This document shows positions 8,808 to 60,821 of a DNA stretch of 64,000 nucleotides, one piece after another. Below the pieces are notes generated by a model, which was not told the origin of the DNA, did no database searches, and saw only the letters and a list, made by a program, of their open reading frames with translations. This DNA is from Moniliella sp. 'wahieum' (lineage: Eukaryota). The position numbers and the translations under genes are program-made. Location: assembly GCA_003971905.1 (NCBI GenBank), contig RSEE01000024.1:1-64000 (forward strand), written 5' to 3'. How positions within the stretch are numbered: position 1 is the first letter of the stretch; each line of letters begins with the position of its first letter.

Positions 8808-9772
8808 CGTTACCGGAAGACAGCTTCCGAGCGCTCTCCGGTGATCGACTCCTCGTCCTCACCTATTGATCGCTCCGCGCGTACCCTCGTGCTCTGCCCC
8901 ATTCTTACAGAGCAGCGTGAGTGCCAGAGCGGTTGAGAGCATTTGAAGACATGCAATGGTTGCAAGTGTGCGGGGAAACGAGAAGCTGGCAATCACGGCA
9001 GAAATGCAAGCGGGTGTGAGAACAATACTCCATGTTATCCTTCGGGTCGAAAGACAACGCGAACGAGATTGAATGGGCCACCGTAAATGTCGAGACGGCA
9101 ACGTTTCTCCGAGGAGCAGGAAGGCGCGGGCGTGGCTACACCCGGCCTTGGTATTAGGGGTGGATTCCGGGCAAGCCGAGCAGGAGTAGTAGAGGCAATC
9201 CAAAGCAGCCCGTGGGTCAGACCCCGCAGCAGTGGACGTCGTCAGGTGGGGTTGAAAGGGTATGCACCAGACTCTGTCGGCTGAATCGTGCCACTGACGC
9301 TGGGCCATCTGGGACGCAGGTCAGTCGTGGTCGAAATGTGCGTCTAACGGGATGTCAGAAGCTGCCAATGGCTCGCCAGCCCGTGGGCCGATTTCGGGGG
9401 AGATGGGGAGCGGTGTGTGGAGGCGCACCCGGACCGGGTGGAGAAAACATGTTGGGCCCGGGGGGGACGGATGGGGCCTGCCGGAGCACAGCGCGATGGG
9501 GGCAGACAGAGGATGAAAGCAGAGTGGGCGCTGTGCTCTGCTGCTTTGAACGCCACGGAACTGCACGGATGGTCGATGGGGTTGGGGAGGCATGAGGGTT
9601 CGTGGAGAGGAAGAGAGAGTTAAGGGAGCTAGAGTGCCCTGAGTGGTGACTCCACTGATCTCTTGAGTGGGTTCGGAACGAGCAAGCCGGACACGCCAGA
9701 TGAGAGAGCCATGAAATGCTGGTATTAGGAGCAGCACCTTTGTCTCATTAGCCTTACCCTTGGTAAAATGAT

Positions 9773-9858
9773 ATATGAATGCACCGAGCATTCTCTGGCA
9801 GAGTTATTCAGATCTCGATATGAATGCACCGAGCATTCTCAGAGTTATTCATATCTCG
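9773..9858. repeat. Two-copy ~44-bp tandem duplication
   Basis: ATATGAATGCACCGAGCATTCTC...CAGAGTTATTCA(G/T)ATCTCGA occurs twice. Confidence 0.85.
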
Positions 9859-10500
9859 AACACTGTTTCGGGGCCTTGCAGTCGATGTCTCGGCTTGCGG
9901 GTAAACACGGACGGCTGCTCGTGCTGACGGGGGACTTTTGCTGCCAAAATGAGTACTACATACGGGATATCCGGGTAACCCAAGGTAGCTAGCTGCTGGT
10001 TGCCCTGGTAGCTGGTATAGCGGGTAGCCCCTCAGATACGAATCGTTTTTACTAATCAGCCTGTCATACATGTCATACGTGTCACATGTCACAGTCACAT
10101 GTGTTACACTCACGCGTCACATCATCCATCATGCATCATGGCGCTCAGCCGCTGAGAGCGTCAGCGCTGCTTATCAACCTTAGCCTGACACGTGACGTAT
10201 GTACCTTGAACGCCGGCAGCGTCACGCGCCACATGTCACAGGTCGTAACGCGTAACGCGTAAAGCTTAGCATGAGACAGAGGGACTACGGTGACGCGGAC
10301 GGTGACAGGTAAGTACTAAGTGACGCGTGACGCGGGTGACGTGTGACATGTGCATGTGACCGGTGACCGGCTGCGGCGTTGAACGTTGACGTAAAAAAGA
10401 CCCTGGTTGTACTGTCTCGCTATTGTCAAGAGGTGCAAGAGGGGGCATCGATATCAATGGGTCTCATCGATCTCAATGCGTATTCTTGTGTTATGCATTA

Positions 10501-10742
10501 CAAGGAGGACCACCACCGGGCCTACGGCCCGGTCAGCTGGGGCTTCGCCCCAGCTGCCGTTCCCCTTCGCCACCTTAGCCACCGTTCCACGCTGGAGAGG
10601 GAACATAATATCCGATGCATGCGGGTGGGGTGGGACAGGAGCGTGGCACCGGTCGCTGATGTAAAGTGTGCAGATCGGGGGTCGTGCAAGTTCCCCCTGT
10701 CCCAGCCTTAAGCTCTGTCAATGAAAGGACGTGATCTAGGGA
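10501..10742 (+). mobile_element. Twin-hairpin element copy 1 (hairpin module plus last ~50 bp of the LINE 3' end)
   Basis: ACCGGGCC-TAC-GGCCCGGT CAGCTGGGGC-TTC-GCCCCAGCTG at 10515-10556. The tail CTGTCCCAGCCTTAAGCTCTGTCAATGA matches 33457-33484 and the reverse complement of ~13626-13652. Confidence 0.75.
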
Positions 10743-11894
10743 TGCATGTTACCTCGTGCATTGGGCTTGGTCGTCTGTCACATGTTACATGTACATGTCA
10801 TCGACATCAGAATCTCCTCGATCTCATCAATCTCGTAGCCATATCAATAAGCTTCAAGCTTCAAGAGCTTCAAGTCAAGTTAGTCATCGACCATATTGAT
10901 CTTTGTTTTATCCGGGCCAGCTGCGGGGGGATCAGTATGCTAGTAATTGCTTCAAGCCTGACCGCACAAGTGAGCTTCTAAGTCCGTGCGACATATGGCC
11001 CTCGTTGGAGAGAGTTGTACAATCAATGAGACAGGATCAATAGATCCTCAAACGTCAGAGGTAGAAATAGTACTTTGGTGTGAAGGTGGCAAAAAGTGTG
11101 ATGGTGTTGGCAGCGTGTGTTCATGCAAAGCACATAGCAAACAGCAACTCCTTAAATTGTCTTAACCCAAAATGGGTATGTATAGAGAAGAGAAGGCCAG
11201 AATTCGTATTCTGAACGGGAAAATATACAAAGGAAAGGTACAGAAAGAGACAGAAGAGGTGAGAAAATGCAGAGAAGGTTCTGGAAGTGGTGGAGATAAG
11301 AATTGGGACAATGAGTGATGACAACAAATCTGTCAGAATCCTACTCCACCGAACAAGCGCCTCACTTGCGCACAGAGGCTCGCCACTCACGCCCGCCGGC
11401 ATCAGTGCATTAGCTTTGTACGTAGAAGTCAATGTCGTGCCGAACGCCGGGCATCGGGCAATGCAAGAAGGGCTGGCCAAAGACGGACCCTCGAATCAAT
11501 GGGGAAGCCGGGGACCCGCCATTTGGTTCACATTGACTCACGTCGATGCATGATGCATGGGATCTCTGACGTGGTTGCCATGGTGCAAGGACAAATAATT
11601 CTGGAGCATTCCGAGATCTTCTTGAAGATTCGGTAGCACACCCAACGCATCTCAGTGTCAGATTTGTGGAACACAAAGGATGATCAAACGATGTATGATG
11701 CATGATGCCTGCGGCCCTGAGGCCCTGAGGCTTGAGGCGGTCTCAGGCGCCTGAGGCCTGGGGCTCAGCGCGCTCAGACGCTCGGCCTGAATATCTGAAT
11801 GTTTAACGTTTAACGTTTAACGTTTAACGTTTAAGATGGATGATGATCGATGCATGTCGCCGCCAAGTATGTACGTTCGACCCCGAGACATCGG

Positions 11895-13560: not shown

Positions 13561-13619
13561 AAGATGTCCCTCTCTTCTCTCAGATCTCATACCACATCAT
13601 GCAATGTTTTATACTTCAT

Positions 13620-14730
13620 CCATATCATTGACAGAGCTCAAGGCTGGGACAGAGACACGCGACGCTTAAACCGACCCGTTTATCTTGTGTGTGCTGCTTG
13701 GCAGCGCCAACCCCGCTTAAGGAACCAGGGGAATCGCCAGGAGATTAAGACCCTCTGGTGCTCGCCATCCGTTTCCATGCCCGAGGCAGCGCGTGCGGAC
13801 ACGGATGAACGTGGTAGACATCCGAGCGAGGAACCATTTCCATTCAGAGTCAGTAGTCAAATCCTTCCAGTTCCCAAGCATCTTACCCGCTGTCTTGGTT
13901 CCGTAGTATCCTCGCGTCGTCAAAACGAGGGGGGGGGAAAACGGCTCTTGGGTGCGTATCTGGTACTTGACGTTCTTGTCGCATTCTTGTTCCAGCAGCC
14001 AAAGCAGCTCCTTCTCTCGGCGTTCCAAGGCGTCGCAGTGCTCTTAAGCGCCACCCTCCGGTACGCGCTCTGCGCTTCCTGCGATCCCGTGTCGCGCAGC
14101 GTCTGGTCCATCTCCATTCCTGATCTTCCGATTGCTCCACGCCCCATCCCGCGGTAGTCGGTGCGCAGTGCCCTCCTCCCGCAACTCGACCCATCCTCTT
14201 CCACCACAGTAGGTTCGTTGTGGACGTGGATGTCGGGAATGGAGCACACGAGCTGGAGAATGGGCTCCCGTACTTCCTCGTGAAACGCACCAAACTTGGC
14301 CTGGGTGCGGGAGCCATAATGTGCTCCAGCGAGGACACGACACCGCGCTTGCACATGCTGCGCATGGAGCGGCACAGTGTGCAGAGCTGGAGACAACCTC
14401 TACCTGCTTTGTCCGAGAGCCGGAGGCACGGGACCAATGGAATGGAGGAGAGCCAAAGTGGCTCAGCGGGTTGCTGTGCTCAACCACATGGCGACATCGG
14501 CATCGTCCAGCATCTGGAGCAGCTCTTGTCGACTCTGCTCCCACATCGCCCGGCAGCCTGGCGTTGCTTTTTAAATGCGTTTGTCATCGCCGTTTGCGGT
14601 CCCAATCGGTCAACATGAATGGTAATAAGAAAGCCGTTGACCTCGTTGGCAGCGGCACGGGCGTGGGGCGCAATATACGAGTAAAGCGGGCTGCCGCGTC
14701 CCCCATCCGGAGAGGCAGGTGTAGCGACGC
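13620..14730 (-). mobile_element. 5'-truncated, degenerate CRE-clade (Cnl1/MoTeR-like) non-LTR retrotransposon: RT thumb, Cys/His region and REL endonuclease
   Basis: Stitched frames read LHLPLRMG..IAPHARAAA, WLSSIPLVPCLRLSD, C..EH..HEEVR..NEP..LRTDYR..EMD, then KNVKY..PFSPPLVLT..G..WK..MS..R. This is the motif order of REL-bearing fungal LINE C-termini. Multiple frameshifts are present. Confidence 0.75.
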
Positions 14731-15009
14731 GTGATGACTCTGACCTGGAGACACCTAGTCGCTAAACCAGAGACGATCAGCGAGCAATAATCAAGTAACG
14801 AGGTGAGCGAGAAGAAGGGGAAGGGGGCAGGAGAGGTGGTGGCGAAGAGGACAGAACAAGTAGTGGGACAGATGAACTCGTGGCCTGCTGGGCCTGCGCG
14901 CGGCAACTCTGGGGTCTAGCTTTCACATCTACGAATCAGGCAAGGCACCAGTGGGTGACCGGTGACGGTGACGCGGTGACGTGGCAACACAGGCTCATGA
15001 GCATGTCGA

Positions 15010-15200
15010 AGTATATTACATCAGCCGGCGCGTGCCACGTTCCAGCCCACCCGCACGCATCGGTGATATTATTGGGTTCCAGCGTGGAAGGGTTCCAGCG
15101 TGGAACGGTGGACCGGGGGAACGGTGGCGAAGGTGGCGACGCAGTACCAAGCTAGGGCGAAGCCCCAGCAGACGGGGGTAGTAGGCCCGGTGGTCTCTCG
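15010..15200 (-). mobile_element. Twin-hairpin module copy 2 (degenerate), upstream of and co-oriented with the LINE relic
   Basis: The reverse complement reads CCACCGGGCCTAC..GCTGGGGCTTCGCCCTAGC..CGCCACCTTCGCCACCGTTCC..TTCCACGCTGGAA..ATAATATCACCGATGC..CGTGGCAC..GCTGATGTAA. Confidence 0.8.
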
Positions 15201-18200
15201 TGATCTACCCTATTATCTATATAAAGAACAATTATACGATTACCGGGCCTATGGTCGTCTGGCACAAGGTAGTCACAGATGATCTACATTTATATACGGA
15301 CCACACTGATGTGACCGCGGATCCCGATGCCAAGCGAGACGGCAACCAAGAACTGGAGGTCAATAGACGATAGGGATTTATTGCCGGTGAGCGAGATAGT
15401 AGAGAGTAACGGAGAAGGAGGAGGAGGGGGAGTGGAAGAAAGTGAAGACGTAAGAGCTACGACTGCCGAGGCTTCTAGAAGAGACATGTCGGACAGCCAC
15501 ACTTCCGCCTGAGGGGAACTACTTAGCGGAGCTAGCGGATGGAGCATGGTGGCCAGCCGTGTGGAACGGGGTGGAGCGGGTGCGCTAAGCAGGACATGGG
15601 GCATGAATGCATACAGTATAATAGGGCCACGCCGTCCATTTGATACTGCGGATGTGAGGCTTGTTTCGCTCCATGCACCTGGAGGACGAACCGGATCGAT
15701 GTGCAGGGCAATATTTGATGCTTTTCTCTGAGTATAAAGCTCCGACAAAGACCCAGGGGGATGGGAACCCCATGCTAGGTAAAACGATAACTTTGGCATC
15801 CTCGTAAGCCTATATACCCCTTCGGATCGGGGGGTGTGGCTGCCCGTTCTACCCGTACATCCTTCCCCATACGTATATGCTGCGGTCAATGAAGAGGTCA
15901 CGGCTTTCTTATTGGAACTTTGTTTCCCCCACTGGCTCACATATGGTAATCGCGTAGACGGCGCGCTGCATCAACGTATAGGAAGGTGTGTGAGAAAAGA
16001 CAGCGAGAGCTTCCAAAGAAGACCAATGAAGTACAGATGGTCGAAATGTCGTTGTGCACAGCAATACGTTCCACTGCATTTGGCTTCTCTCGATGCCACC
16101 AGCCAAGTGGCTCGAGCTCACCGAAGACAAAACCAAGATCAGACTATTGGTGTTATACTAGTTACATACCCTGAGGAGGGGTGCTGCGCACCAAGTGGCG
16201 CAAGTGTTCATGATAAATGAAAACATCGTTGCGCACACGTTCGTGGGTCTGCATCCTAATCCAATCAACAATCCAAGTTTGGGTTTGTGCGGTACCAATT
16301 CTCAGGCTTGCTCGACCCATTCGGGACACCTTGTTTTCATGAGCGGCTTGTGGAAGAGGAGAAAAAGAGGAAGAAAACAGGGGAAGAAAGGCCAGGCGTA
16401 GGGATACTGTGGGCACGAGCGTTTGAAGGGTCAGGACGGTGGCACTTACCTGTCAGGAGACGGAGATGGGGGAAAGGGTGCAGATGGATTGCATACATCT
16501 ATGGACGCACAGGAGGTATATGTACCTCCTCAGGAAGGGGGCACAGTCGAGAGGTGGACACAGGATCTCCCAACTGATAAGAATCACGCCATAGTGCCCA
16601 TACGGGCCTAGTGGGCCAAGGGCCCCCCTAGCACGGCGTGAGCCTGACATTACCATATGAGAGACTCGAGTACGAGAAGACACACGTTACCTTACCAGTG
16701 AGCGAGCTGCGTTGACTGATGTTGGAGCAAGCGGAATACAAAGGAAAACCACAAGCGCTGTAGGGACACAGATGACCTGTTCTTCTGCTTAATCATGACG
16801 ACATCTGCAGGCGCCATCATGCGACCAAGTGACAGTAAACAAGATATTTTACCACTCAGTCAAAGCCTGACCGAAGCACCTCATTGGAGATTGTTCATCG
16901 CTACTAGCACATGTGTAAGTACCACCACGCTCGTTGTATACATCCACTGCTTTCGTTAGTACATCCAGTTGGAAGCGAATTCCGGGAGAGTGAGTTAATG
17001 GCCTGCTGGCGACTCCACCGGCCTTCAGATGGGTTTGCATGAGCAGTCAGTACTCACTACTAGATAAGCAGGCCTGGTAAGCGCACCGTTTCTTTTTCTC
17101 GGCCATACCCTCTGCAAACTATGATATGAATCATGAATCCAGAATTAGATAGACAACGTGATGAATAATGGAGGCCCGTAAGGGGACACGACCTGGGTGG
17201 TCATCTGCAAAGGTGGGACACATACCGAACAACGGAGGAGAAAGCATCCCACAAACGAAATCGGGAACAGGTCGAAAAAAGCACAAAGGAAAGCACAGGC
17301 GCGCGGACAGATGAGTAGGCCTAATGCCACAGCGTCGCACAGGGTCTGACAAGGGAAGCAAACATATGTACATCACAACAGGTCCCCCACGAACGTTTGC
17401 CTATAGACAAGAGAGCAACAAGGAGGAGTGGAAAGGTCGAGCACAAGATGGCCGAGACGTGGAGAACTAAAAGAGAGAGCACGTGTTCCCCAGGACGGCA
17501 ACAACCAAAAAATAAAAGGAAAAGAAGACCGGCTGAGAAGTGGAAACCCAAGGAGTTGCCGTAGTTATGATCAAAACAAAAGACCGGAACGCTCAATACC
17601 CAGCGGACTGGTGGTACTCAATGTGAGCTTCGCTTCGAGCGCGCAATCCCCAGCGGTTAGGCGGAATCGGTCAGTGACGGAGATGGCAAAGTGTTTAACG
17701 CCAGAGACAAAGAACATTGTGATGGTGATTAGCTGAGTTATGCGCAAAAACAAAGAGATGGAAAGAGAGGCGAGCAGGCACTTGAAGGATTCAACCGCCA
17801 TCAGGGGGAAGAATTCTCAACGTTCAACGCGCTATTATCGGCGGGGCAAGGCCGAGCCGGAGTGATAACTTTAGTAGTAGCAGACCGGAATAACCTCGAC
17901 ATTCGGAGGAAGGCAGCGCACAGGTGAGGGGGCAGTCAATCTGGGACATTGCGTGCCAAGCGCAAAGGGACGATTAGTCTTCTTACCCAATATCGGATGT
18001 GGTGGTGAGTGCGCCTCGTTGGCCGTTCAAGGCTAGCGAAGGAGAGGGTGCATTTTGGGTACGCGCCACCACAGGTCATGGCATCAGCAAGCTAGGTCGG
18101 GACAGAAGAGGTCGACGCGTCATGTACACGTACATCACGAACCAAAAAAGAGAGTGCAGGATACCAAGCATATGCCTTAGTCCTACGCCTCGCCACCCCT

Positions 18201-21728: not shown

Positions 21729-24700
21729 TAACTAAGCCAATACCCCATGCGGGCTTTCCCTCTCCTGCGCAATGCCCCACAGGGGACGAATTCAACGCAA
21801 AATGCTCCTGAGGCGCTGAGGTTTGCAGTGTTCGAGCGAACAGTGAAGGGCACCAAGGTGTAGCAACTTTTCTTGTTAATGGGTGTGCTTGGGCTATGCC
21901 GATGTGGAGATTTTGTGGTTGGGACGGGAGGTTTGGAACCAACGAGACAGAAGCCTGTGTTCTTGGTTCTCTGTCCTCACCATTTTGTCTTATCTTCAAG
22001 GTTCTTTCGGCCTTCCCTTAGCCCATTGTCAGCGGCTATATGCATTGGCGTTATTACTACTTCCCAAAGGATCCTCCTTTTACCTTACTATCTCCTCCGT
22101 TGCCTCGTCGGGCCCTGGGCGTTAGGTCCCCGCTACGCGTGACAAGCGCGAAACAGTCCCCAGCAAGGACCAACACGCACATCTGTCGGAGCAAGCAGCT
22201 GCATGGTGTGGCATTAAGTGGAAGTGGCCCTATGGTCGAGGCCTATGCCCAGCTGTTGTGCATGCGCAATTCCCATATTAACTGGCCCCTACGTGTGCTT
22301 ATTTTGGTCCGGCATAACGAGGTGAAGGTGCATGTTGGAGACCCGCCTACCTGCGAGGTCACCTAGACAGTATATTTATCTGCTGAAACGTGAAGGCGCC
22401 AACCACAGAGGTGAGTCCTTGTCGGAGCGTTCTGGTGTCCTGTGACCCACCTACACTCGCAAAAATGTGTGCACTCTGGGTGAGGCGGATTATATTGCAC
22501 CTTTGGGCGCGCCCTACTGCGACGCTTGTGGTTGTGAAGACCTATCTGGTGAGGTGATACTTCATCGGCGGGGTATGTGTCTCATGGGGGGGGGGGGGGT
22601 CTCCAACGCGCCTGGGCCTCCCAATCCAGCTTGTGTCCGCGACATTATGCACATGAACGGCTGCTGCCGCGGCCCGGCCGTTGATGGGTCTAGTAGTTCG
22701 CACAAGAATGCGAGCATGAACACTGTCCGGACATGGGTGCGAGCGGTTCAAGACCATCGCCCTATAGAGATTGACCCTACAGCTTTCTGGCTCTAGTTAG
22801 ACTCGTTAGGAAAGCTGGTATTCCCGGTTCACGATCTCGTGGCCGAGGTTGTCACACGTCGGGCAGACGGGAGCAAGATCGTCGGTTGTGGAAGGAAATA
22901 GACTCGCGAAAAATGTGGTCGTCAAGCTTCTCGTCCTCCACAGGCTTCAACATATTCTTGGACAAGATTTGTCATTACTACCTATACACTGGCATTATGT
23001 ATTCCTTCAGAATTTTGAATCGAGGTACGGAAACTCTTCTCGGGTCAAGTCTTGAGGGGGATCCGTCGAATAACTTTGTGGCATTCTGGAGACTACCACG
23101 GCATGTGGGGGTTAACCCAATGTTTTGACACCTAATGCATAGGTGAAGAGGGGGCGTACTGTTGCTGGCGCTATCAGGGGCTCGGGTGCTATAGAGTGGT
23201 CGGTGTCGACCGACGGCCACAGTGGCCTAGTCACATCGGAGCTCTGTGCTGTCAGAGTTGGTGAGCGTATACTAGTCTACACCGCACCCAATGCACAATC
23301 TAAATGCATCAGGGGGGGCGCTTTGCACAGAACTGTGCGGGTGCCAATTCTCATATTTACCCAATCCATTCGGGACACCCGAGTTGTTTTCAATGAACTG
23401 ATTGTGCAGAAGAGGAAACTGCAGCCTGAGAGGAAGGATAGGTGGGTAAGGATTACTCTAAGATAGGGTCCCGAGCGTTTGGAGGATATGGAATAGAGGT
23501 GGACCGCACCTTGGTGGAAACTCGCGGGGAAGAGGGAGTGATCACGTTTCCTCGCCGAATGCCGAATGGAACAGACAGCAAACCCTGGTAAAAAAGAGCT
23601 GCGCAAGACTTTTGGAGCAAGCAGAATGCAAAAATAAGAACACCCAACAGTTAAGGGACGCACTGGCCATCCGTTCTCCCCTTTGGTCATGAGACGCCAC
23701 GTGGATATACGAAACGAGCAAGACGTGCATGAAGGTGTTTGAGTACTCTGGGAAAAAAAAGAAGTCTTACTAAAGAGTCTTATTGAAGATGGTTCATCGC
23801 TCGCATGTGTAGCACCACGATTATTCGTACATATACCTCCACTTGTGTTTTGCATCCGGTCGAAAAATCGGATGGCGGGAATCTAAGACCTCTTAGCGAG
23901 TCCACTGGCCTCTTATTATTGGTTGGCACGGGCGAGCATACGCTGATGAGCATGCCTGGTAAGTGCAACGTTCTTTTTCACAGCCTTAGTCGCACTGTAT
24001 GTTCTGAAAATGATATGAATCCAGAACAGTTCAATTACTGTGTTGATATGCAACGTAATGAATAAAGGGGGTAAGGTGACGAGGACTGCAGTTCCCTGTG
24101 AGGGGCACAGTCCGAACGGGAGTAAACATTCCACGCATTATAAGCCAGAAAGACGAACAGTCACTGCAAGCAAAGTCCATGAAAGAAAGACAGTTTCTTC
24201 GCGCTCAGCTAGGAATATAGGAAAGGAAGAGTGGGTCACCGATTGACTACGCTCGCTCCAATTTGGCCCCATTGCATCCCGCGTTTCCAGATCTTCCCTT
24301 GTCGTTATACTTCTATTCCCTGCCCGATGCCTCGCTGTGTTGCCTCCAAAAAAAACGACCCTTCTCCATTTCCCCCGTCTCTAAAAGGACCCTGGTCCCC
24401 TCGACTGGTACAGAATGTGGAGAGGAGAACGGGGGACGCACAGATCAGGAAGCCCAACTCTGAGCTCAGTAGTCACTTACTTCTAATCCCGAAGAAAAAA
24501 AGAAAATTCACATATGTGATGAAAGCAGAGACCAGGAAAAGAAACAATAAACCACACACGATTGGACACGTCTCTCACCATATATACCAAAGGGACTCGA
24601 TCCACTGTGGTCGCACAGATTGAAGGGAACTTGCTGCAGTTAGACGCAACGGAGTTCCACATGAAAGTGACTGGTCAACATAGTTCAGACGAGCCAAACG

Positions 24701-26895: not shown

Positions 26896-29800
26896 GGTGA
26901 AGATTGGGTGATGCGAAGGTGGGTAGGTGGGCTGGATGGAGTAGGGGTGGGGATGGGATGAGGAGAGATGGTAGGAATAGACGCGTTGGGCTCGCATTAT
27001 AAACTCGCGGGGGCCATCCTTCTCCCTGTTTTCTTGTGGGACATTGCTGTTACTCGGTGGTCATTGCCCTGTTTCTCCCTGTTTGAATGGAAATGAGTCT
27101 TGGAGCAATGGATACAACCCCATCATGCATTACCGGTTACCCGTCGTGCACTACGGGTACTTACAGGTTACTATAGAATGTGGAGGTGCTTTCTTCCGTG
27201 ATACTGTGTGATCTGTGACATGCGAGGTCTAAGATCATCGACCAGTGATCAGCGAACAGCGCAGCCATTCACAACTTCAGCCCTTCGAGACATATGTAGT
27301 TGCGCTGGCTATCCGGGGAAGCCTACTCATGTACAGATGATGAGTCGGTGATGCATGATGCATGATACAGCATTGCGAGACCGCCATGGTCCGTGCACAG
27401 TTACCCTGCTGGGTGTACCGGGGTTCGCTGTTGTCCAAGAAGTGGGGCTTTTGATTGATTGGATTTTGATTGATTGGTTGGGGGAGCTCAAAACAAGACC
27501 TCCTCTCAATCCTCCGAATTGATTCGACCAAACGTTGGGCGGTAGAGCATCGTGCCCTTCGCGCTCGCCTGGCCAGCTGGCCGATGTGATCGATGAAGAC
27601 GACAAACGATAGCGACGATCGAGACGAACGCGATCGATGAAAATTGAGGGAACCCTCTAACTCTTACTTTGGTGTGTACATCTGTGACCCCATGCATGCC
27701 AGACAGATGCGAAGGAGACTATCGGTTAACGTGTATGCCGTCCTCCGAATCCCACACAAGTTGCCGCGATCTCTTCTGTCACATTATACGCGATACTGGC
27801 CTTCCATCTTGTCTAAACGTCAAGAAAGCTTGACGCGGCCAGCTGCAAGCCTCCTTCAGCACGGGCTTTTTTCATGGGACATGCAACGTGCTCTCCTCCA
27901 TTTGCCTGCGCGTTCTTGATGGCATGGGACAGCAGTCCGGCTACTTCTGCTGCCAGTGCCCTTGCACCCGAGCGTTTTGGTATTTGGACGTGAGACATGG
28001 CAAATTGGAACACCGAGTGTGCAGACGAGGGGCTAGAAGAAGGGTAGAAGAGATTTTGGGGTGAACCGTGCGCGGGTACAGCGGGGAGCAGTAGAAGCTG
28101 TATAGAGATTCTCGCGCAGCGAGCTTGCGTCCCACATAGCCCATGGCCCTGCGTCCAGTACTCAGTGCACTCAACTCTCCGCGCTGAGGGCGCTGAGGGC
28201 GCTGAAGCGCTGTTGAAGGCTCAGTCTGAGCTCTGAGCCTGAGCGCTGAGCAAGCAATTCACACATGTAGTGGCGGTATGCATGCTACTTCGGGCATACT
28301 CACTAATATTGCGGGAGCGTGCTAACGTGTGCCTCATCCGTATTACATTAATTCGGTATACGAAGAGAGGCGGACCAGTAGTAGGGGGACCTCGTCCGGT
28401 CTCCCTTCCGCCTTCCTGTGTGCACCCCTACACGCCTGGTCCGCTGATGGCATCACTACCCTGCATTTTGCTCGCCCCGGGACCGATTGCGAACGTGACT
28501 ACCGTTGAACATCGGGTTCAAGGTTTGCAATACCCCGTTTATACCGGTCACCGGCTGGTTATCACGGTTACCATTTAAACGTACTTGACGTTTAAGTTAC
28601 AATTTAACGTTCAACGTTGAAGTTCAACGTGTTCAACGGTTACTTGGTTACCTGCACACACGAAAGTCATGTAAATATGTCGAGTCATGTAAATATGGTA
28701 CGAAGAGGGTGATTAACGTTAAACAGTCTTTAAACGTTAAACGTTAGTTGCTATCATTGTGTGCGAGAGGGCCCGTTCTGCCTCTGTTCCGCCCTTGCCT
28801 GTTGCGTCTCCAGGCGGCTCCCCTAATTGCATCCCCACTACGTCCTCCCCTACCTCGCTCCCCTCCCACGCATTGTTGCCGGAAGTAAGCTTTTCGAACC
28901 AGAACTTCAAGCTATAGCTATTAGCTTCAAGCTCTGAAGCTTCAAGATTCGCTTCGCAGGGTTCTGAGCCCTCGGCCTCAGTACACTGAGTCTACTGTCA
29001 AAAAATCGGCAATCCTCGATCCTCAGCTGCCTGAAACATGGTATGGAAGTGTGGTACGTCTGTACCAGGTACCTGTGGCTCTGCTACGGGGTCACCGGTC
29101 ACCCATGCTTCAAACGTCAGCGCGTCAGCACTATATCAGTGGTGGATCATAATATGTACCTCTCCCAGATAATCCTGCGAGTGCGAGCAAGTGCGAGCGC
29201 TCAAGCGCTCAGCGCCCATGCATCATGATGCGCATGATGCATGATGCATGATTCCCCGTCACGCGTCACGCGTCACGTTCAAGCTTCGAGCCCTTCAAGC
29301 TTCAAGCTCTTCAAATGCTTCAACAAGAGTAAAGTACAGTATTCTAGCTTCTAGGCGCACGGCCAATAAATAGCTAGTCACTAGTCACTCGCTAGTCCCT
29401 CCAGCCATTCATATGTCACAGTGACTAGGTCACCGGCCAGAACACCACCGACGTCAACGCTTCATCTGCTTATATAGCCTTTAGTAGAGTGCGACTTTAG
29501 AGCATCGAGCACGGAGCGAGATCGCGATCCGATGGATCCGCTGCAAAGCAGCCTTCGGACAAGGCGCGAAGGGAAAGTGGTGAGCCAAAATGGATCAGTC
29601 TTCAAGCAATTTCTGAAGCGAAGGAGACCGGAGAGAGGAGGGGGATGGAGCGAGCAGGGGGTGCGCAGCCTGCGAGCGGATGAACTCTGCCGCCCGACTA
29701 GACAACCGTCACACGCCACCAATCAACTTGGAGTCGGGCATGTTGTCAGACATATGGGGCGTGCAATATATGACGTCTGGCGTGACGCGTGACGTCTGTG

Positions 29801-32522: not shown

Positions 32523-32897
32523 GGGTCCCCGTGCTGAACACTGTTTCCTGGGTTTTTGTGACTCTCCAACATACAATAAATACACACTGTTTTCATTGAC
32601 TGAGGGTTTAAGAGATCCCAAACGGGGGCGATCCCCTATTTTTTCTATACTGTGAATGCCAGTGCCTCGATTGTGTACCACGACGACTTTAGGCCTAAAC
32701 GCTCCTTACGTCAGAGACATTGACCGTAGTGGTGGTTGGCAATCCCGTTGCATTTTCTTAATTATTAAGATGGGGGGGCGGAGGGTGTCAACTGTGGGCC
32801 ACGTTTGTAAACTAGCGACACAAAGGACAGCCCTTGACGTTCCCATCAGTCCTTCTCGGACCCCCCCTGCGTGCTTGGAAAGATGGAATATGACCGA

Positions 32898-33510
32898 CAA
32901 GGAGAACCACCGGGCCTACGGCCCGGTCAGCTGGGGCTTCGCCCCAGCTGTGCTGCGTCGCCACCTTAGCCACCGTTCCCCCTTCGCCACCGTAGCCACC
33001 GTTCCACCGTCGCCAACACTGCCGACATGGAGAAATAATATAACCGATGCTTGCTGCTGGCTGCGGGTGGGGGTGGCGTGGACCGTGGCACGGGGCAGCT
33101 GATGTAAAAGTGCACAGGGCGAAGGGAGGAATAATAATGTAACTTACAGGGACGCACTCTCAAGAGCCGTTTTTCCCCCTGGTTTTGACGACGCGAGGAT
33201 ACTACGGCACCAAGACGGCGGGCAAGTTGTTTCGCGCATTGGAAGGAGTTGGCTACTAAGTCTCAGTGGAAATGGTTCCTCGCTCGGATGTCAACCACGT
33301 TCCTCCGTGTCCACACGCGCTTCCTAGGGTACGGGACCGGATGGCGTGAGCCGGAGGGTCCTGATATCCTGGCGATCCCCCTGGTCCCTTGACCCTGGTG
33401 GCGCCCCCAAGTAACCCCCGCAAGATGAACGGTTAGGTTTAGACGTAGCGTTCCCCCTGTCCCAGCCTTAAGCTCTGTGAATGAAATGGACGTGACTTAG
33501 GGATTAGGGA
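32898..33510 (+). mobile_element. Twin-hairpin element copy 3 (hairpin module plus last ~350 bp of the LINE, ending TTAGGGATTAGGGA)
   Basis: Perfect twin hairpin at 32909-32950. Segment 33150-33490 aligns to the reverse complement of ~13620-13955, including the ORF end IPLVP*. Confidence 0.85.
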
Positions 33511-35169
33511 TATGGACAAAGAGCGGTCATCATCTGATGTTACGCGTTACGGCCCTCCTCTCCGCGGAAGATGCTATCCGATCAAAGGCCCGATACTTTG
33601 ACGTGTGTCATAACAAGCTCCATCCCAACTCCCCAACTTATATTTACGGTCATGTGGACGCTCGTTCCATTACGTCTAATGGTCGTATGTCACACCTCCT
33701 TGGCGACCCTTGTGACGGCTTATATTTTCTGTTTCTTTCCAAGATTATTCCCCTTCGGCGACGAAGCTCAGCTGATCTGTTAGTTTCCTTAAGTTTCCCG
33801 CCCGGGAACGGTCCCTTCGTAGCCACTGTTGCTCCCCAGTCCCTTGTTTATTCCCCCGTTTTCTCCTGAACCGCATGGTTCCACTTTAGTCATTTTCCCC
33901 TCTGTATGAAGTGGCCCGTGGGTTTTCCCGAATGATTCATCGGCATCTCGTTTTCACCATCTTCATCGATCCATACGGTACGGGCAACTCGATCTTCCAG
34001 CTCTTAGTTCCCTCCTCTGCTCTCCGCCTCTTCGACCGCCACATGTTCTCCCTTTAAGCTCCCATCAACCAACGGCATACCGTGAATCGACCCTGCCGGC
34101 CTCCAAGGGAATGTACCCCTTGAAGGGCCCACAGAGCGAGCCCCAGGCTGGCCCAAGGGGGGGGGGGGGGGGGGGGTTGTGAACTGTGCGACATCTCTGA
34201 TATCTCTATACTATGACACATTTCGTTAAAGCTTTTCTCAGCATACTTGTAGATACTGGGATCCAACGGTCGTATCCCTCTCTGTCCGTGAAAACTACCA
34301 AACAATACGCCCGCGTTTCATTGTGTTGTCCGCCCTTGCATATAGTCATACTACCCTTGCGTAATCCGTCAACTGGCAGTTATTGCATAGAACGTCATTG
34401 GGTACTGTGGAGGGCAGTTCACCAATGCGTGTCCATCGTTAGCCGCTGCCATGGGACATCCAGCAAAGAAAATAGTCCAAAAGGATGTGCACCCTTCATG
34501 TACACTACCGCGCGGTAGAGGGTTCTCGTCAAAGAAACGCAACTGTTGGCATAAGCAAAGTGAATTACGAAAGAGGCCATATGGTCGAGATGTTGTGAGC
34601 GGAGAGTTATAAATATGTGGGGGTAGCGTCAGTTCATCACGTTCATCAGTCATCAGTATTCAGAGCAAGAAAGCTCAACAGCTTCGACGGTGAGTGGCTG
34701 GATTGCTGTGGAGGAGAGAGCTGCTCCTTCTCTGACTTGCTCAAATCTCTGAGCGCCTCAGGCTCTTCGGGCACCTCAACCCCCCCCCCCCCCCCCTCAG
34801 GCTCCTGTTGATGTTACAGCCCGTGCTAGATCTGAGATGGTCTGATCCAAGTGAAACCCCGCTTGCTCTGTATATATGCCCGGTAGAGCGGGCTCTGAAG
34901 TCCAACCAAATTTGATTATGGTGGGTTAAACCATCGTGTACGGTGACCCGAGTGGCCACGCATCTGCGCGACAAGAGTCGCCCCCCCCCCTCCTCGCTCA
35001 AGTCAAAGTCGGTTGGCTTAAATGAGGCCACCAACGTTCCGGTACCTTTGCGACGACTGTCGCCCCGTCACCATCGATACTTTATCCTTCTCCTTTGCGC
35101 CTCCCGCAATCCACACCTCTTTTGACATGTCTTCCTTTCTACACCACTATATAGTGTGTCCGTTTTCCC

Positions 35170-55655: not shown

Positions 55656-58600
55656 GAGTGGGGGTCTTTAGCTGTAATGGATTGAGAGAGGTATACGAAT
55701 GATGATGTGGTCAATAACTCTTGTGTGACAAGACACAAAGCGATTATAGGGGGAGGAGCCGCATCTCACCAGGGGGTGGGCACAGAACGAAGAGAGGGGG
55801 CTAGGCTACTACCGCCGCGTATAAGCATTTTGGTCGCATGCCACTACACTGTATCGTCCACCGCTGTGGATCCCAGCTTCTGTCTCCACCGAGTTGCCCC
55901 CTACAGTGAAGCATTCATATCAACACCCGGGCGTCCAGAATCCGTCCTTATCCCATGCAACTTCGCGCCCTCTATAATAGTGTTTACCTCTGGTGTCCTA
56001 AACCAGTCTTTCCCAGCGACCAGCTCTTGGTCTTCCACTTTCCTTTTGACCGGGCCACCATGCGTGCTGTCGACAAGTCCCGTGTGTCCAACAATCTCCT
56101 CTCTGTACGGATGCCGCTATAGGCTACTGATATATTCGAGTTGTTCTAGTGACGGGGAGGGGGCTATCTGACTGATTGACTGTGCCCCCTTATACGCGCG
56201 AGCTACCCCGTATGGAAGCACGGTCTGCATGCACGCCGGCCCTGCCAAATCAGGCGCATGCGCGACCCTTTGTGACGCCTGACGCGAACCGCCGCCACGC
56301 CACGAGTATACGTGCAGCAAACCCATACTACACCTCGCGCGTCTGTAGCCGCATTCGGATGAGCCAACAGCAGGTGGATAGCACCCCACAAGAGCCAGCG
56401 TCAGTCGTCCGCGCCCCTCCTCTGAGGAAAGTGCCGCTACGTCCAGAGAAAGCGCTCCTACACATTATCGATAGCGTCCCTGCCCGCTGTCCGCCCATAC
56501 CGCCCATAATCCAGCCCGTCGATTATGAGGAACAAGGCGTCTCCTATGTGTTCCAGCTGTGGATAACCATAGTCCGAATGGGACTGTGCTTTCACCGTGA
56601 CAAAAATAGTTTGAGTGCGAAGCCCTTGTTTTGCCATTGCAAGCTCCTCTTTTTCGTTAGTGAGGTTTCCAGCACCGGCATACTGTGACCGTCAGAGGGA
56701 ATCGGGAGCGTCGGGGGAGGAAGAGAGAGGAAGAGAGAGGAAGAGCTCCAACACGCTTGTGAGCATAGTAGATCCTTGTCATGTAGTTCTCGCCATTCCC
56801 CTCCAAACCGGGGGTATATAGTGCGAGCGAATCCGAAGGAGCGTGGTAGACATGTGTGTAAGCAGTTGAACCCTCTCCAACGAAATGATGGGACTCTTCT
56901 GTAAGAGTATTCCTCAAATGTTCTGCCATCCTAACCGCGTGTCCTCATGACCAGGGGGAAGATGAACGGCTCTTGCGTTTTCGTGCTTGGTATATTTGGC
57001 GTTCTTATCGCACGGTTACGCTTGCTCAAACAGTCCATGCAGCCTCCCCCCCAACATCCCAAGGCGCCACAGGCGTTGCCGTCTGCGCGTGTACGCCTGT
57101 ACCACTTTCCAGCAGACAACTTCAGCTTCCTTTGTCCGCGAGCCCCTCAGGATATGTGGACCAACTGCATCCGCTGTGATACGAACCACGGTCGCATTTA
57201 GTAGTCAATCCATCTCGCCCCCAAGCCAAGTGGAATCCACACTGCGAATCGACATGGACGAGTATATATACAGCTTTGTTGACCACCCACAGTGTTGCCG
57301 AGATCCCATCGGCCTTCAGTGATTTCTGTTGTGGCCGGACACATGTGCACGCAGTACTGTGAATGGGTCCCTGGGTTGTTGTGGACCTTTTGCCTGCGCT
57401 TCCGGCGTTTGGCCCAAGTAGCGATACTTGTCTGTATGACAACTGTTCCCGTCGTGCGTGTATGTGCGCCCAGAAGAGAATGTAGATCAGAGGAGACATG
57501 GTACTGCACCACCTCGGCACGCCAAGCCGCAACGCCAGTTGTTGCTGCTTCTCCCGAGACAGCTGTAGGTTTTGTTTTCCTGCATCATGGCTTCCCCCAT
57601 CTCTCCTCTCTCTGTTCCATAATCATTTATCGTTGCCCCCCGGCCATTTTCTGTCTCTCGAGGAGAAGAGCAGCCCAGTTCTCCCGTTCTAACCATCGTA
57701 ATGCATAATGTCCTCTGGCAGCGGTGCCTTGAGCACCAGGAGACTCAGCACTCGCCCGACTGCTCCGCTCTGGCGGCTCCGCCCCGTGGGGGATGGTGGT
57801 GTCCAATTGGGCGACGTCTGAAGTATACAGAGACACGAATAGGGTGTAGTTGGCTGTGGTACAGTAAGACTGAGTCGATATATGTCGGAGACCCGTGGCG
57901 TGCGGTGGTAGAACAACGAAATTGGCGGTAGGGCCTAGGGGTTATTTGTGGTGCAGCCATTGGTTTCTTCTGTGACATGCATGACATGTGATGTGTGCAT
58001 GCGTTACGCGTTATGCGTTGCGCGCTAATGTCGGAGAAAGTTGGATTAAACACGTTAAAAACGTTAAACGATGAACGTTATATTTATACACAATGGGGTT
58101 GGATATCGGATGGGGGGGATGACATGTGACAGCAAGCATATCCAGTGATCGATTGCGGGCAGGCGATCGGCGTGGATAGAAAAGAGAGGTTCAGAGGAGC
58201 AGACCATGTGGCTGTTCTTGTGCGCGTTACGCGTTGCGAGAGGGAATTATAATTGTGGCGCACTCGATACTTAGTACTCGACGGGCACAAGCGCGTCGCT
58301 CGCGCAGGTTGGGAGCGATCTGAGTAAGGAATGCGAATGGGTGGGGCCTCGGAAGCGCCGAGTCAGCACGCTGGGATCTCGATGGCGCAAGGACAGAATG
58401 GGGAGTGTGGATCGCCATGGGAGCAGGTGCTGAGGATGAAAAGGGGGATGGGATTGGTGGATGAATGTTGGGCCACCGCCCTGGCGGACGCGTTGACGCG
58501 TATAGGAGGGCATTGAATAGTGAGGTTTGAAATTTGATGGCAGGTCACGTTGAACGTTCAAAAGCGGATCGGCGGCTGAAGATTGGATTTGGGTTGCGTA

Positions 58601-59335: not shown

Positions 59336-59619
59336 CCCAAACCCGAAACCGCAGTCGGCAGCCTTGTGGCCATGGCGACGGCAGTGGCGGCACAATTCTC
59401 GGCGTGGATTGAAGGAACACTGTGCGCGAGTGTGGTCGTTGGTGCGGCAATGGGGGCACCGCCAGTGAGCACGGATAGGGGCATTTTAAGGGAGTGGAGG
59501 GACGCGTCGACGCGACTCTGTCATATGCCCGATGGTTGGCGCAGCTCCCCCGGTCACGTGATCGGGGAGCAGTAGGGTTGCTGGCGTTTTTTGGTGGGCC
59601 CTCGCATATGGTAATAGAA

Positions 59620-59870
59620 GACGAGGAGGCCACCGGGCCTACGGCCCGGTCAGCTGGGCTTCGCCCAGCCTCGTACTTGGTCGCCACCTTAGCCACCGTT
59701 CCCCCGGTCCACCATTCCACGCTGGAACCCTTCCACGCTGGAAAGTCGAAATAATATCACCGATGCTTGCTGGCTCGGGTGTCTGGGAACGTGGCACCGG
59801 TCGGTACGTGTCTATGACGTAAAAGATGCACGGCGGATCAATTTTGCGTATGACATAGGGACATAGGGAT
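59620..59870 (+). mobile_element. Twin-hairpin element copy 4
   Basis: ACCGGGCCTACGGCCCGGTCAGCTGGGCTTCGCCCAGC at 59632, followed by the shared module. It ends ATGACATAGGGACATAGGGA. Confidence 0.8.
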
Positions 59871-60821
59871 GTGACATGTGAGGCGCTGCTGCACTGCCAC
59901 AGACCATGCCAACCAACAAGCGGCACGGGGCGAGCGGTGCGCAGAACAGAATGTTGAATGTTTGAGCGCTGGCGCGGCGGCAGCCGAGGTTGAACGTAGA
60001 CTGCCCACCCAGCCGAGGGCGCCCGGGCGCAGGCTCTGGTGCTTGCAATTCGTATCCACTGCCCAGCGCACACCGAGCTTGGCGGTTCAGTCTGAGCCTG
60101 ATCGCTGCGCTGCTGCGTGTGCATGGCTTGCGCCCCGCCATGCGCAGGGGGGCAGCCTCCCCCGCCGGCACGGACGATCGCACCCGGCCGGCGCAGGCAC
60201 AGTGTGCGCCCAGGGGATGCACGGGGTGCGAGGGCTGGCGGGTGACAGGGCCGGTGGGCGGGTGGGCCTGCGGGTGGGGGGCGCCCCACGCAGCAGGCAG
60301 CTGTGCGCTCGGGCGGGCGGGTGCCGGGGGGCTGCGGCGGATGCAAGGCGCGTGATGGCGCGTGACGCGTGCCGGCGGGTGATGGTGTGACGTAGACGGC
60401 GATGCGAAGGGCGGCGAGGGCATGCCAGCCGCGTGCGCTGATCGGCCGCATGGGTGATGGCGGCACACACGGGCGCCGTGCGGGGGGTGGGCGTGGGCAG
60501 TGCTTGGGATCGAATGCCAGCCATCCGCGCTCGCCTGCTGTGCTCTGCCCGCCCACCCGCCGCAGCAGCCGCCAGGCTGGCCAGCACCATCGTCCACGCG
60601 CCCTCTGCCCATCGTCCACGCGCCCCCGGCCGCCCATCTCTGCTCTCCATCCCATCTGCTCCTCCCCCCGCCCATCTCCCCCCTCCTCCTCCCCCCCGCC
60701 AGTGCAGCCGCCCTGCTCCGATCTGCGTGCGGCGTGCCCTGCGCATGCCCTGCTGCCCTGCCGCGCTCTGCCCCTCGCCTCCGCCCCCGCCTCCCCTCCC
60801 CGCCCGGCGTGACGCGTGAGG

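Follow-up and report, generated by a model that had tools for sequence, protein, structure and literature searches.

We tentatively interpret four loci in the window, the whole stretch of 64,000 nucleotides of DNA that was analysed, as copies of a two-part element in which a discrete head of about 190 nt is followed by 3'-terminal sequence, of differing length, from a REL-endonuclease LINE, the two having been joined by template switching; we hold this reading with somewhat less than even confidence. What was directly seen is four copies with a common head and a common 3' end, four junctions between these two parts, and a REL-like motif in the coding part. A preliminary description of this DNA had proposed a repeat whose structured head stays constant and whose 3' end is common to the copies, and the alignment supports this. 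The window comes from a fungus-like eukaryote; its ORFs match catalase, GMC oxidoreductase, P5A-ATPase, Na/Ca exchanger and cyclin, and its G+C content ranges from 51 to 72% per 2 kb.

The head module, which is about 170 to 215 bp in length, was found four times in the window, at 10500(+), 15201(-), 32897(+) and 59621(+) for copies 1 to 4, respectively, and the earlier claim of a four-copy module is borne out. Searching the window with an nhmmer profile of the module gave four strong matches with E values from 1e-59 to 7e-39, located at 59619-59818(+), 32897-33112(+), 15203-15011(-) and 10503-10669(+) for copies 4, 3, 2 and 1, respectively, and none else at E<0.5. A repeat search and blastn concurred with the profile on the module copies. 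The exact 41-nt string containing the twin hairpins described below is present twice in the window, at 10516 in copy 1 and at 32910 in copy 3, with none expected from 100 shuffles. The head modules were placed at 10500..10669 (+) for copy 1 (nhmmer E 6.8e-39, and alignment), 15011..15201 (-) for copy 2, 32897..33112 (+) for copy 3 and 59621..59818 (+) for copy 4. All of them begin with a common 5' edge, AC(A/G)AGGAG, at 10500, 15201, 32897 and 59621, and the DNA upstream of this edge is unrelated from copy to copy; by blastn within the window, the flanks of the four copies are unrelated single-copy DNA. A partial module suspected upstream of copy 1 (10323-10400) scored no better than shuffles. 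The alignment separates two module subfamilies, one comprised of copies 1 and 3 and the other of copies 2 and 4 (79% identity outside the hairpins), and the divergence among the copies is 7-20%. The results suggest that the four loci are old, dead retrotransposed copies, with no sign of present activity.

Two abutting hairpins occupy the 5' part of the module, with the twin palindromes located 15-56 nt from its 5' end. Hairpin 1 is ACCGGGCC-TAC-GGCCCGGT with a stem of 8 bp, hairpin 2 is CAGCTGGGGC-TTC-GCCCCAGCTG with a stem of 10 bp, and there is no spacer between them. In copy 1, hairpin 1 (10515..10533, +) has a perfect 8-bp stem with a TAC loop and hairpin 2 (10534..10556, +) a perfect 10-bp stem with a TTC loop, reading GCGAAGC on the minus strand; in copy 3 both hairpins (32909-32950) are likewise perfect. 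Copy 4 keeps hairpin 1 perfect, and its stem 2 has lost one G together with the matching C, which leaves 7 bp and confirms the symmetric shortening noted earlier. In copy 2 hairpin 1 is broken and stem 2 consists of 8 bp with one G-U pair. The description of the module as starting with two perfect abutting hairpins therefore holds for copies 1 and 3 and, with stem 2 shortened, for hairpin 1 of copy 4, but fails for copy 2. Folded as RNA, the twin hairpins gave -35.2 kcal/mol (z -6.6, equalled by none of 200 shuffles), and folded as minus-strand DNA they gave -22.6 kcal/mol (z -7.8); the hairpin fold of copy 2 (z -1.6) was no better than shuffles. The minus-strand loops were verified to be C-GTA-G and C-GAA-G, as had been stated for the opposite strand, and we take C-GTA-G and GCGAAGC to be exceptionally stable DNA mini-hairpins. 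A search for perfect hairpins with a stem of at least 8 bp and a loop of 3-5 nt returned 16 entries in the window, compared with a mean of 4.1 in 20 simulations, and 7 of the 16 fall in module copies. Other perfect hairpins, with 11-bp stems and unrelated to the module, lie at 209-233 and 29217-29243.

The twin hairpins are the best conserved part of the module: pairwise identity over the hairpin columns is 81-100%, compared with 43-79% for the remaining module when gaps are counted as differences. Covariation of the stems was looked for, and none of the 31 predicted pairs showed a compensatory double change among the four sequences, which are too few to weigh much in either direction. Selection to keep the stem could account for the symmetric loss in copy 4, and so could mutation templated by the hairpin.

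Downstream of the hairpins, the GCCACC repeats that had been described were confirmed as tandem repeats, with a period of 26 in copy 3 and a period of 16 in copies 2 and 4, where the unit TTCCACGCTGGAA carries a TTCCA-CGC-TGGAA hairpin. This third hairpin, which had been ascribed to some of the copies, is indeed found twice in copies 2 and 4; copy 1 has an imperfect version of it and copy 3 has none. A long-range helix between GCCACCGTTCC and GGAACGTGGC (GGA(A/G/C)CGTGGC across copies) is possible in all four copies, and the fold of the whole module has an energy of -88.8 kcal/mol (z -2.4). The head matches no tRNA, 5S, 7SL or snRNA model; ARAGORN found no tRNA gene, Rfam gave no match at gathering score in the whole window, and at E values up to 10 in 10400-10800 the only Rfam match was to an unrelated microRNA (E 7.9) outside the module.

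Each module is followed by 3' sequence in the same orientation, about 30 bp in copy 4, 55 bp in copy 1, 340 bp in copy 3 and 1,100 bp in copy 2, and all four modules of the window precede the common 3' end or its tail. The lengths given earlier (almost none, about 50 bp, about 350 bp, and about 1.1 kb after a spacer) proved right. Copy 1 carries the last 55 nt or so of the common 3' UTR with the tail CTAGGGAT (10690..10743, +; 3' UTR profile E 1.5e-15), and 10690-10743 is 93% identical by blastn to 33450-33504 of copy 3. Copy 3 holds about the last 370 nt of the LINE-like part, namely the C-terminus of an ORF (LVP-stop) and the 3' UTR, with the tail TTAGGGATTAGGGAT (33130..33511, +); its segment 33152-33490 is 81% identical by blastn to 13957-13619 of copy 2. 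The LINE-like part of copy 2 (13600..14719, -) comprises an upstream region of about 170 nt, the frameshifted remnant of an ORF resembling the database protein P0002 (14546 to 13723, by tblastn) and the 3' UTR, and it ends without a TAGGG tail. Between it and the module lies a spacer of about 300 bp (14720..15010, -), which is unique in the window, contains a GGTGAC microsatellite and gave no Pfam match when read through with X at stops. In copy 4, about 30 nt like the extreme LINE 3' end, followed by the tail ATAGGGACATAGGGAT (59819..59870, +), were read from the sequence, their alignment being not significant. Short repeats of the TAGGGA type thus terminate three of the four copies (1, 3 and 4). 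Copies 1 and 4 total about 245-250 bp each, and copies 1 and 3 share their last 55 nt or so with the ORF-bearing copy 2, a 3' tail in common with a partner LINE, as in SINEs.

Mapping of target-site duplications revealed no significant duplication in any of the four copies, the longest common flank words being 4-6 nt (P 0.18-0.93 against random window pairs). Site-specific insertion was likewise not seen, as the four copies lie in unrelated flanks. The window contains no telomere array, TTAGGGTTAGGG having no match at up to one mismatch, and the sole recall of a telomeric target is the short TAGGG tail of three of the four copies.

Several other repeats occur in the window. The pair 35417-35832/59023-59315 was considered as a paralogous empty site for copy 4 and rejected, since the homology stops 300 bp short of (upstream of) that copy; it is another dispersed repeat, about 75% identical. 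Repeats rich in GTGAC/ACATGT adjoin copies 1 and 4 and occur in the copy 2 spacer (10320-10375, 10775-10810, 14954-14981 and 59866-59880), and similar units are found elsewhere (29257-29277 and 60349-60382); these probably represent a type of microsatellite found throughout the genome, not a component of the element. Heptamer microsatellites are frequent in the window, about 14 of 71 Tandem Repeats Finder entries having period 7 (for example GTTTAAC, GCATGAT, CGTCACG, TTGAACG), and the tail unit of the element, TTAGGGA, likewise has period 7. The 3' end of copy 2 is about 160 bp from the first block of a segmental duplication (12166-13436/20494-21740), whose two parts are about 8.3 kb apart, are 77-99% identical in blocks and include a C2H2 zinc-finger ORF.

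Copies 2 and 3 share an open frame with the same stop (…LAIPLVP). Over its last 55 codons dN/dS between them is 0.48 (36 differences, 17 of them at third positions), a sample too small to lean on. The 198-aa ORF of copy 2 was searched with HMMER against 1.84 billion representative proteins and gave two matches, P0001 and P0002; against longer proteins only it gave none. P0001 was discarded as a repetitive, unrelated-looking protein. P0002, the sole real database relative, is an intact hypothetical protein of 279 aa, encoded on a metagenome contig of 1,174 bp and forming a cluster of one member, and by tblastn it aligns to copy 2 from 14546 to 13723 over three frames and also to the end of copy 3. 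When P0002 itself was searched against longer and near-length proteins only P0002 was returned; it had no match in Pfam at E values up to 1 and none among PDB sequences at E values up to 10, and its AlphaFold model from a single sequence (mean pLDDT 36.5) was unusable.

The consensus of the REL endonucleases of SLACS/CRE, MoTeR1 and FoTeR is given as C[X1-3]C[X7-8]H[X3-4]C[X9-10]RHD/N.X19-33.E.X9-21.R/KPD.X12-14.D/E (PMC12857005). This strict form has no match in P0002, but P0002 fits a relaxed pattern, C-X1-C-X7-H-X3-C-X9-LHE-X20-E-X16-RTD-X15-E, with three deviations, namely LHE in place of RHD/N, RTD in place of R/KPD and 15 residues in the last spacer. None of 20,000 shuffles of P0002 and none of 250 window ORFs of at least 100 aa fits the relaxed pattern. 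In copy 2 the corresponding motif reads FHE, with 14 residues in the last spacer, and the X20 spacing in P0002 is the same as that given for MoTeR1 and FoTeR. In the ESM Atlas the nearest clusters are unnamed, one being from Ascomycota, and the nearest named clusters (scores 0.89-0.90, 158-162 shared features) have zf-RVT in 18-42% of their members, which is a weak lead.

A reverse transcriptase domain (RVT_1, Pfam) was found in none of 15 ORFs, 86 ORFs from the surroundings of copies 2 and 4 and of the relics described below, and 9 read-through frames. Because no RT domain is present in the window, the partner LINE is postulated from a C-terminal motif only; an RT-bearing parent elsewhere is still allowed, since the copies may simply lack the RT part. 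The assignment of the 3' parts to a CRE-like LINE, as the preliminary description had it, agrees with the relaxed REL motif and with the TAGGG tails of three of the four copies and disagrees with the missing RT and the unmatched strict consensus; at the level of sequence motifs it is plausible, not proven.

Related sequences were also found beyond the four copies. Three older relics of P0002-like ORFs lie in the window: a heavily mutated one at 23317..24031 (+), with a related ORF and 3' UTR (tblastn; 3' UTR profile E 0.083, weak) and no recognisable module, one at 16036..16146 (+) that corresponds to the N-terminal part of the ORF (tblastn), and one at 56760..57156 (-; tblastn). These relics are full of stops, have no module, and are older copies of a related element. 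A stretch at 9655-9774(+) is perhaps a further relic of this kind. Outside the window, one DNA run from a food metagenome, which shares a small fraction of the sequence words, contains 58 contigs that, over a 20-kb stretch, map nearly exclusively to copies 2 and 3, and no RNA run was among those listed as carrying such words. Since these contigs cover element parts and hardly anything else, the run carries the element family rather than host genes; stretches that its contigs leave uncovered are uninformative. One of its contigs continues upstream of 33159, the module joint of copy 3, with sequence matching the copy 2 ORF (CDKNAKYQGR, as in P0002), and because it extends the ORF beyond the copy 3 junction, longer forms exist elsewhere. 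Another contig of the run covers 14558-14719, upstream of the copy 2 ORF. This evidence comes from one run of one study, with details taken from 8 of 62 pieces. A 24-nt hairpin pattern had no match in metagenome contigs or prokaryote genome contigs, the 3' UTR pattern had none in viral contigs, and no P0002 locus was confirmed in metagenome contigs or genome contigs.

The positions of the junctions bear most directly on how the two parts came together. Past a common GATGT, copies 1, 3 and 4 stay alike over some 12 nt (AAAAGTGCACAG) before they part, and copy 2 departs from them about 10 nt earlier; with only four copies that are 7-20% diverged, junction positions are uncertain by about 10 nt. 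All module-side junctions fall within about 20 nt. The LINE-side junctions, measured from the 3' end, lie at about 30, 55-90, 370 and 1,100 or more nt and are spread over more than 1 kb; they differ in all four copies, giving the arrangement known from MINE, in which a 5' unit precedes a LINE truncated from its 5' side at varied positions. Both module subfamilies have one long and one short form, which indicates that shortening occurred repeatedly.

Earlier, the repeats had been suggested to be either deletion derivatives that keep both ends or products of an RT jump between templates. The repeat structure underlying both proposals stands, and because the module-side junctions stack while the LINE-side ones spread, the pattern leans to the RT jump; we infer that template switching onto a discrete head RNA is slightly favoured over internal deletion. 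By this route, the LINE RT would start at the 3' end of the LINE RNA by target-primed reverse transcription, halt at a variable point, and then move onto the 3' end of a separate head RNA, which would lie near GATGTAAAAGTGCAC, and copy it to the head 5' end. Copies 1 and 4, which are the shortest and have a SINE layout, may themselves have served as templates. The same switch of the RT has reportedly been proposed for the U6-L1 chimeras of mammals. Several points count against template switching: there is no solo head gene in the window, the copies have no significant target-site duplication of the sort present in MINE, the window has no RT domain and the strict REL consensus is unmatched, selection keeping a 5' leader needed in cis could likewise place deletions just behind the module, and the 300-bp spacer of copy 2 needs a second jump or another origin.

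If the module were instead the 5' leader of an autonomous REL LINE, the four loci would be internal deletions of that LINE which keep both cis ends, as in MoTeR2 or the R2 SIDEs, and we consider this a rather unlikely explanation. The route exists in this clade, since MoTeR2 has 860 bp of 5'-terminal and 77 bp of 3'-terminal sequence in common with MoTeR1 (PMC7367193); R2 SIDEs reportedly arise by internal deletion and retain the 5' ribozyme and the 3' end (PMC3414825). The module body with its 26-nt and 16-nt repeats has a counterpart in the 5' tandem-repeat clusters reported for MoTeR1/FoTeR (PMC12857005). The copy 2 spacer could be further leader, and deletions into the module would be purged by selection. 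However, four distinct deletions must then all begin within about 20 nt behind the module, the 12 nt that follow GATGT in copies 1, 3 and 4 are not continued in the copy 2 spacer, and non-autonomous families that succeed usually do so with a single junction rather than four.

Whichever way the parts were joined, the palindromes might act as double-stranded DNA, bound by transcription-factor dimers within an internal promoter that the element carries along. CGG/CCG pairs are targets of zinc-cluster factors and CANNTG is a target of bHLH factors, and internal promoters occur in LINE leaders; hairpin 1 reads CGG-N9-CCG and hairpin 2 contains two CAGCTG boxes, at a position close to the module 5' end. 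This is nevertheless unlikely. The complementarity is perfect across the full 8 and 10 bp, beyond the core half-sites, and the loss of one G and one C in copy 4 keeps the stem while it alters the half-site spacing and destroys the second CAGCTG. A folded strand fits better, because the stems are fully perfect and the copy 4 loss is matched, and we consider a role of the hairpins in cis, as folded head RNA or as a cDNA strand, to be the most likely. In either molecule they might give stability, bind a protein, or be a landing or pause structure.

Two bolder readings we regard, taken together, as quite doubtful. In one, the head represents a SINE head or acceptor RNA of a new kind, with no known small-RNA parent, whose cDNA hairpins could capture the REL-LINE RT, or prime or position second-strand synthesis; an RT-capture structure would explain why every junction stacks at the head 3' end. 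In the other, the long form seen in copy 2 and P0002 is a REL-like nuclease element of about 1.6 kb without RT. P0002 and the copy 2 frame start at the same methionine (14546(-) in copy 2), and the copy 2 frame has a stop eight codons upstream of it, so that a long form of this kind may exist.

The composite loci might also derive from head-to-tail arrays, in which 5'-truncated LINEs that target TAGGG-like repeats were inserted directly behind a short element ending in such repeats, as in the MoTeR arrays of telomeres, and the arrays were later internalised. Truncated MoTeRs form head-to-tail stacks in which short telomere tracts separate the elements (PMC7367193), and in the window the copy 3 junction reads CAGGGCGAAGGGAGG, which is weakly AGGG-like, and AATAGGGTAG precedes copy 2. 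We judge such an origin improbable, as no junction has a clear telomere repeat, no solo module with a tail is present in the window (copy 4 being the nearest), and the flanks are unrelated single-copy DNA. Finally, a self-cleaving ribozyme, HDV-like or other, that frees the element 5' end from read-through transcripts would suit a strongly structured module and has reported precedents in R2 (PMC3774820) and L1Tc (PMC4035085), but it is very improbable here, given that Rfam had no match at gathering score, that HDV-type descriptor hits were lenient, copy-specific and never at homologous positions, with no solution for the nested double pseudoknot P1-P2-P3-P1.1-P4 common to the copies, and that hairpin 1 closes on itself and leaves no room for the P2/P3 strands.

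The head-plus-tail repeat is real and is a fairly ordinary kind of fungal repeat. In annotating this genome, the four loci and the three older ORF relics should be treated as repeats, not genes, and the conserved twin hairpin offers a sharp marker for annotation of the family as well as a small candidate cis-acting signal in target-primed reverse transcription. If the junction pattern were to hold genome-wide, this would add to MINE a second example, in fungi, of chimeric retrocopies driven by a LINE, here one with a REL endonuclease and with kinship to the telomere-targeting MoTeR/FoTeR group. To our knowledge, little is known of non-autonomous partners of LINEs of that group.

Among known systems, MINE of Magnaporthe is the closest. 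MINE consists of a full-length WEIRD 5' unit joined to 230-5,461 nt of the MGL 3' end at 28 junctions, with no solo WEIRD; the chimeras were ascribed to template switching, and the copies have duplications of 10-20 bp (PMC2104539). The element found here resembles this in having a constant non-coding 5' unit in front of 5'-truncated LINE ends of many lengths, a fungal host, and no solo 5' unit in the window. It differs in the size of its head, about 190 nt as against 1.1 kb, in its apparent partner, a REL-endonuclease (CRE-clade-like) LINE and not MGL, and in having TAGGG-type repeats at the 3' ends and no target-site duplications of 10-20 bp.

With MoTeR1/MoTeR2 of Magnaporthe oryzae and FoTeR of Fusarium oxysporum the element shares a similar order and spacing of the REL motifs, a partial telomere-like 3' terminus, a tandem-repeat-rich 5' region and short non-autonomous or truncated forms (PMC7367193, PMC12857005). 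MoTeR relics, too, always end at the 3' side in a telomere repeat, if only a partial one (PMC7367193). Unlike those elements, the copies here are interstitial with unrelated flanks and have no 5' TTCGGG/TTTGGG repeats, no RT was found, and the RHD and R/KPD (RAD) motifs read LHE and RTD. In the text consulted of the two papers twin hairpins go unmentioned, and the word 'hairpin' does not occur in that of PMC7367193. The R2 SIDEs of Drosophila are similar in being non-autonomous and in keeping a structured 5' RNA and a REL-LINE 3' end (PMC3414825), and they differ by the 5' HDV-like ribozyme and the rDNA-specific insertion of R2, neither of which was found here. Copies 1 and 4 are also laid out like SINEs with LINE tails, with a head, a body and a partner-LINE 3' tail (PMC5786205), unlike which the head has no tRNA, 5S, 7SL or snRNA match and tail length varies between about 30 nt and over 1 kb. 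We concluded that these copies make up a new family within a known kind of retroelement, built of a head and a LINE tail; MINE resembles it most, followed by MoTeR2 and the SIDEs.
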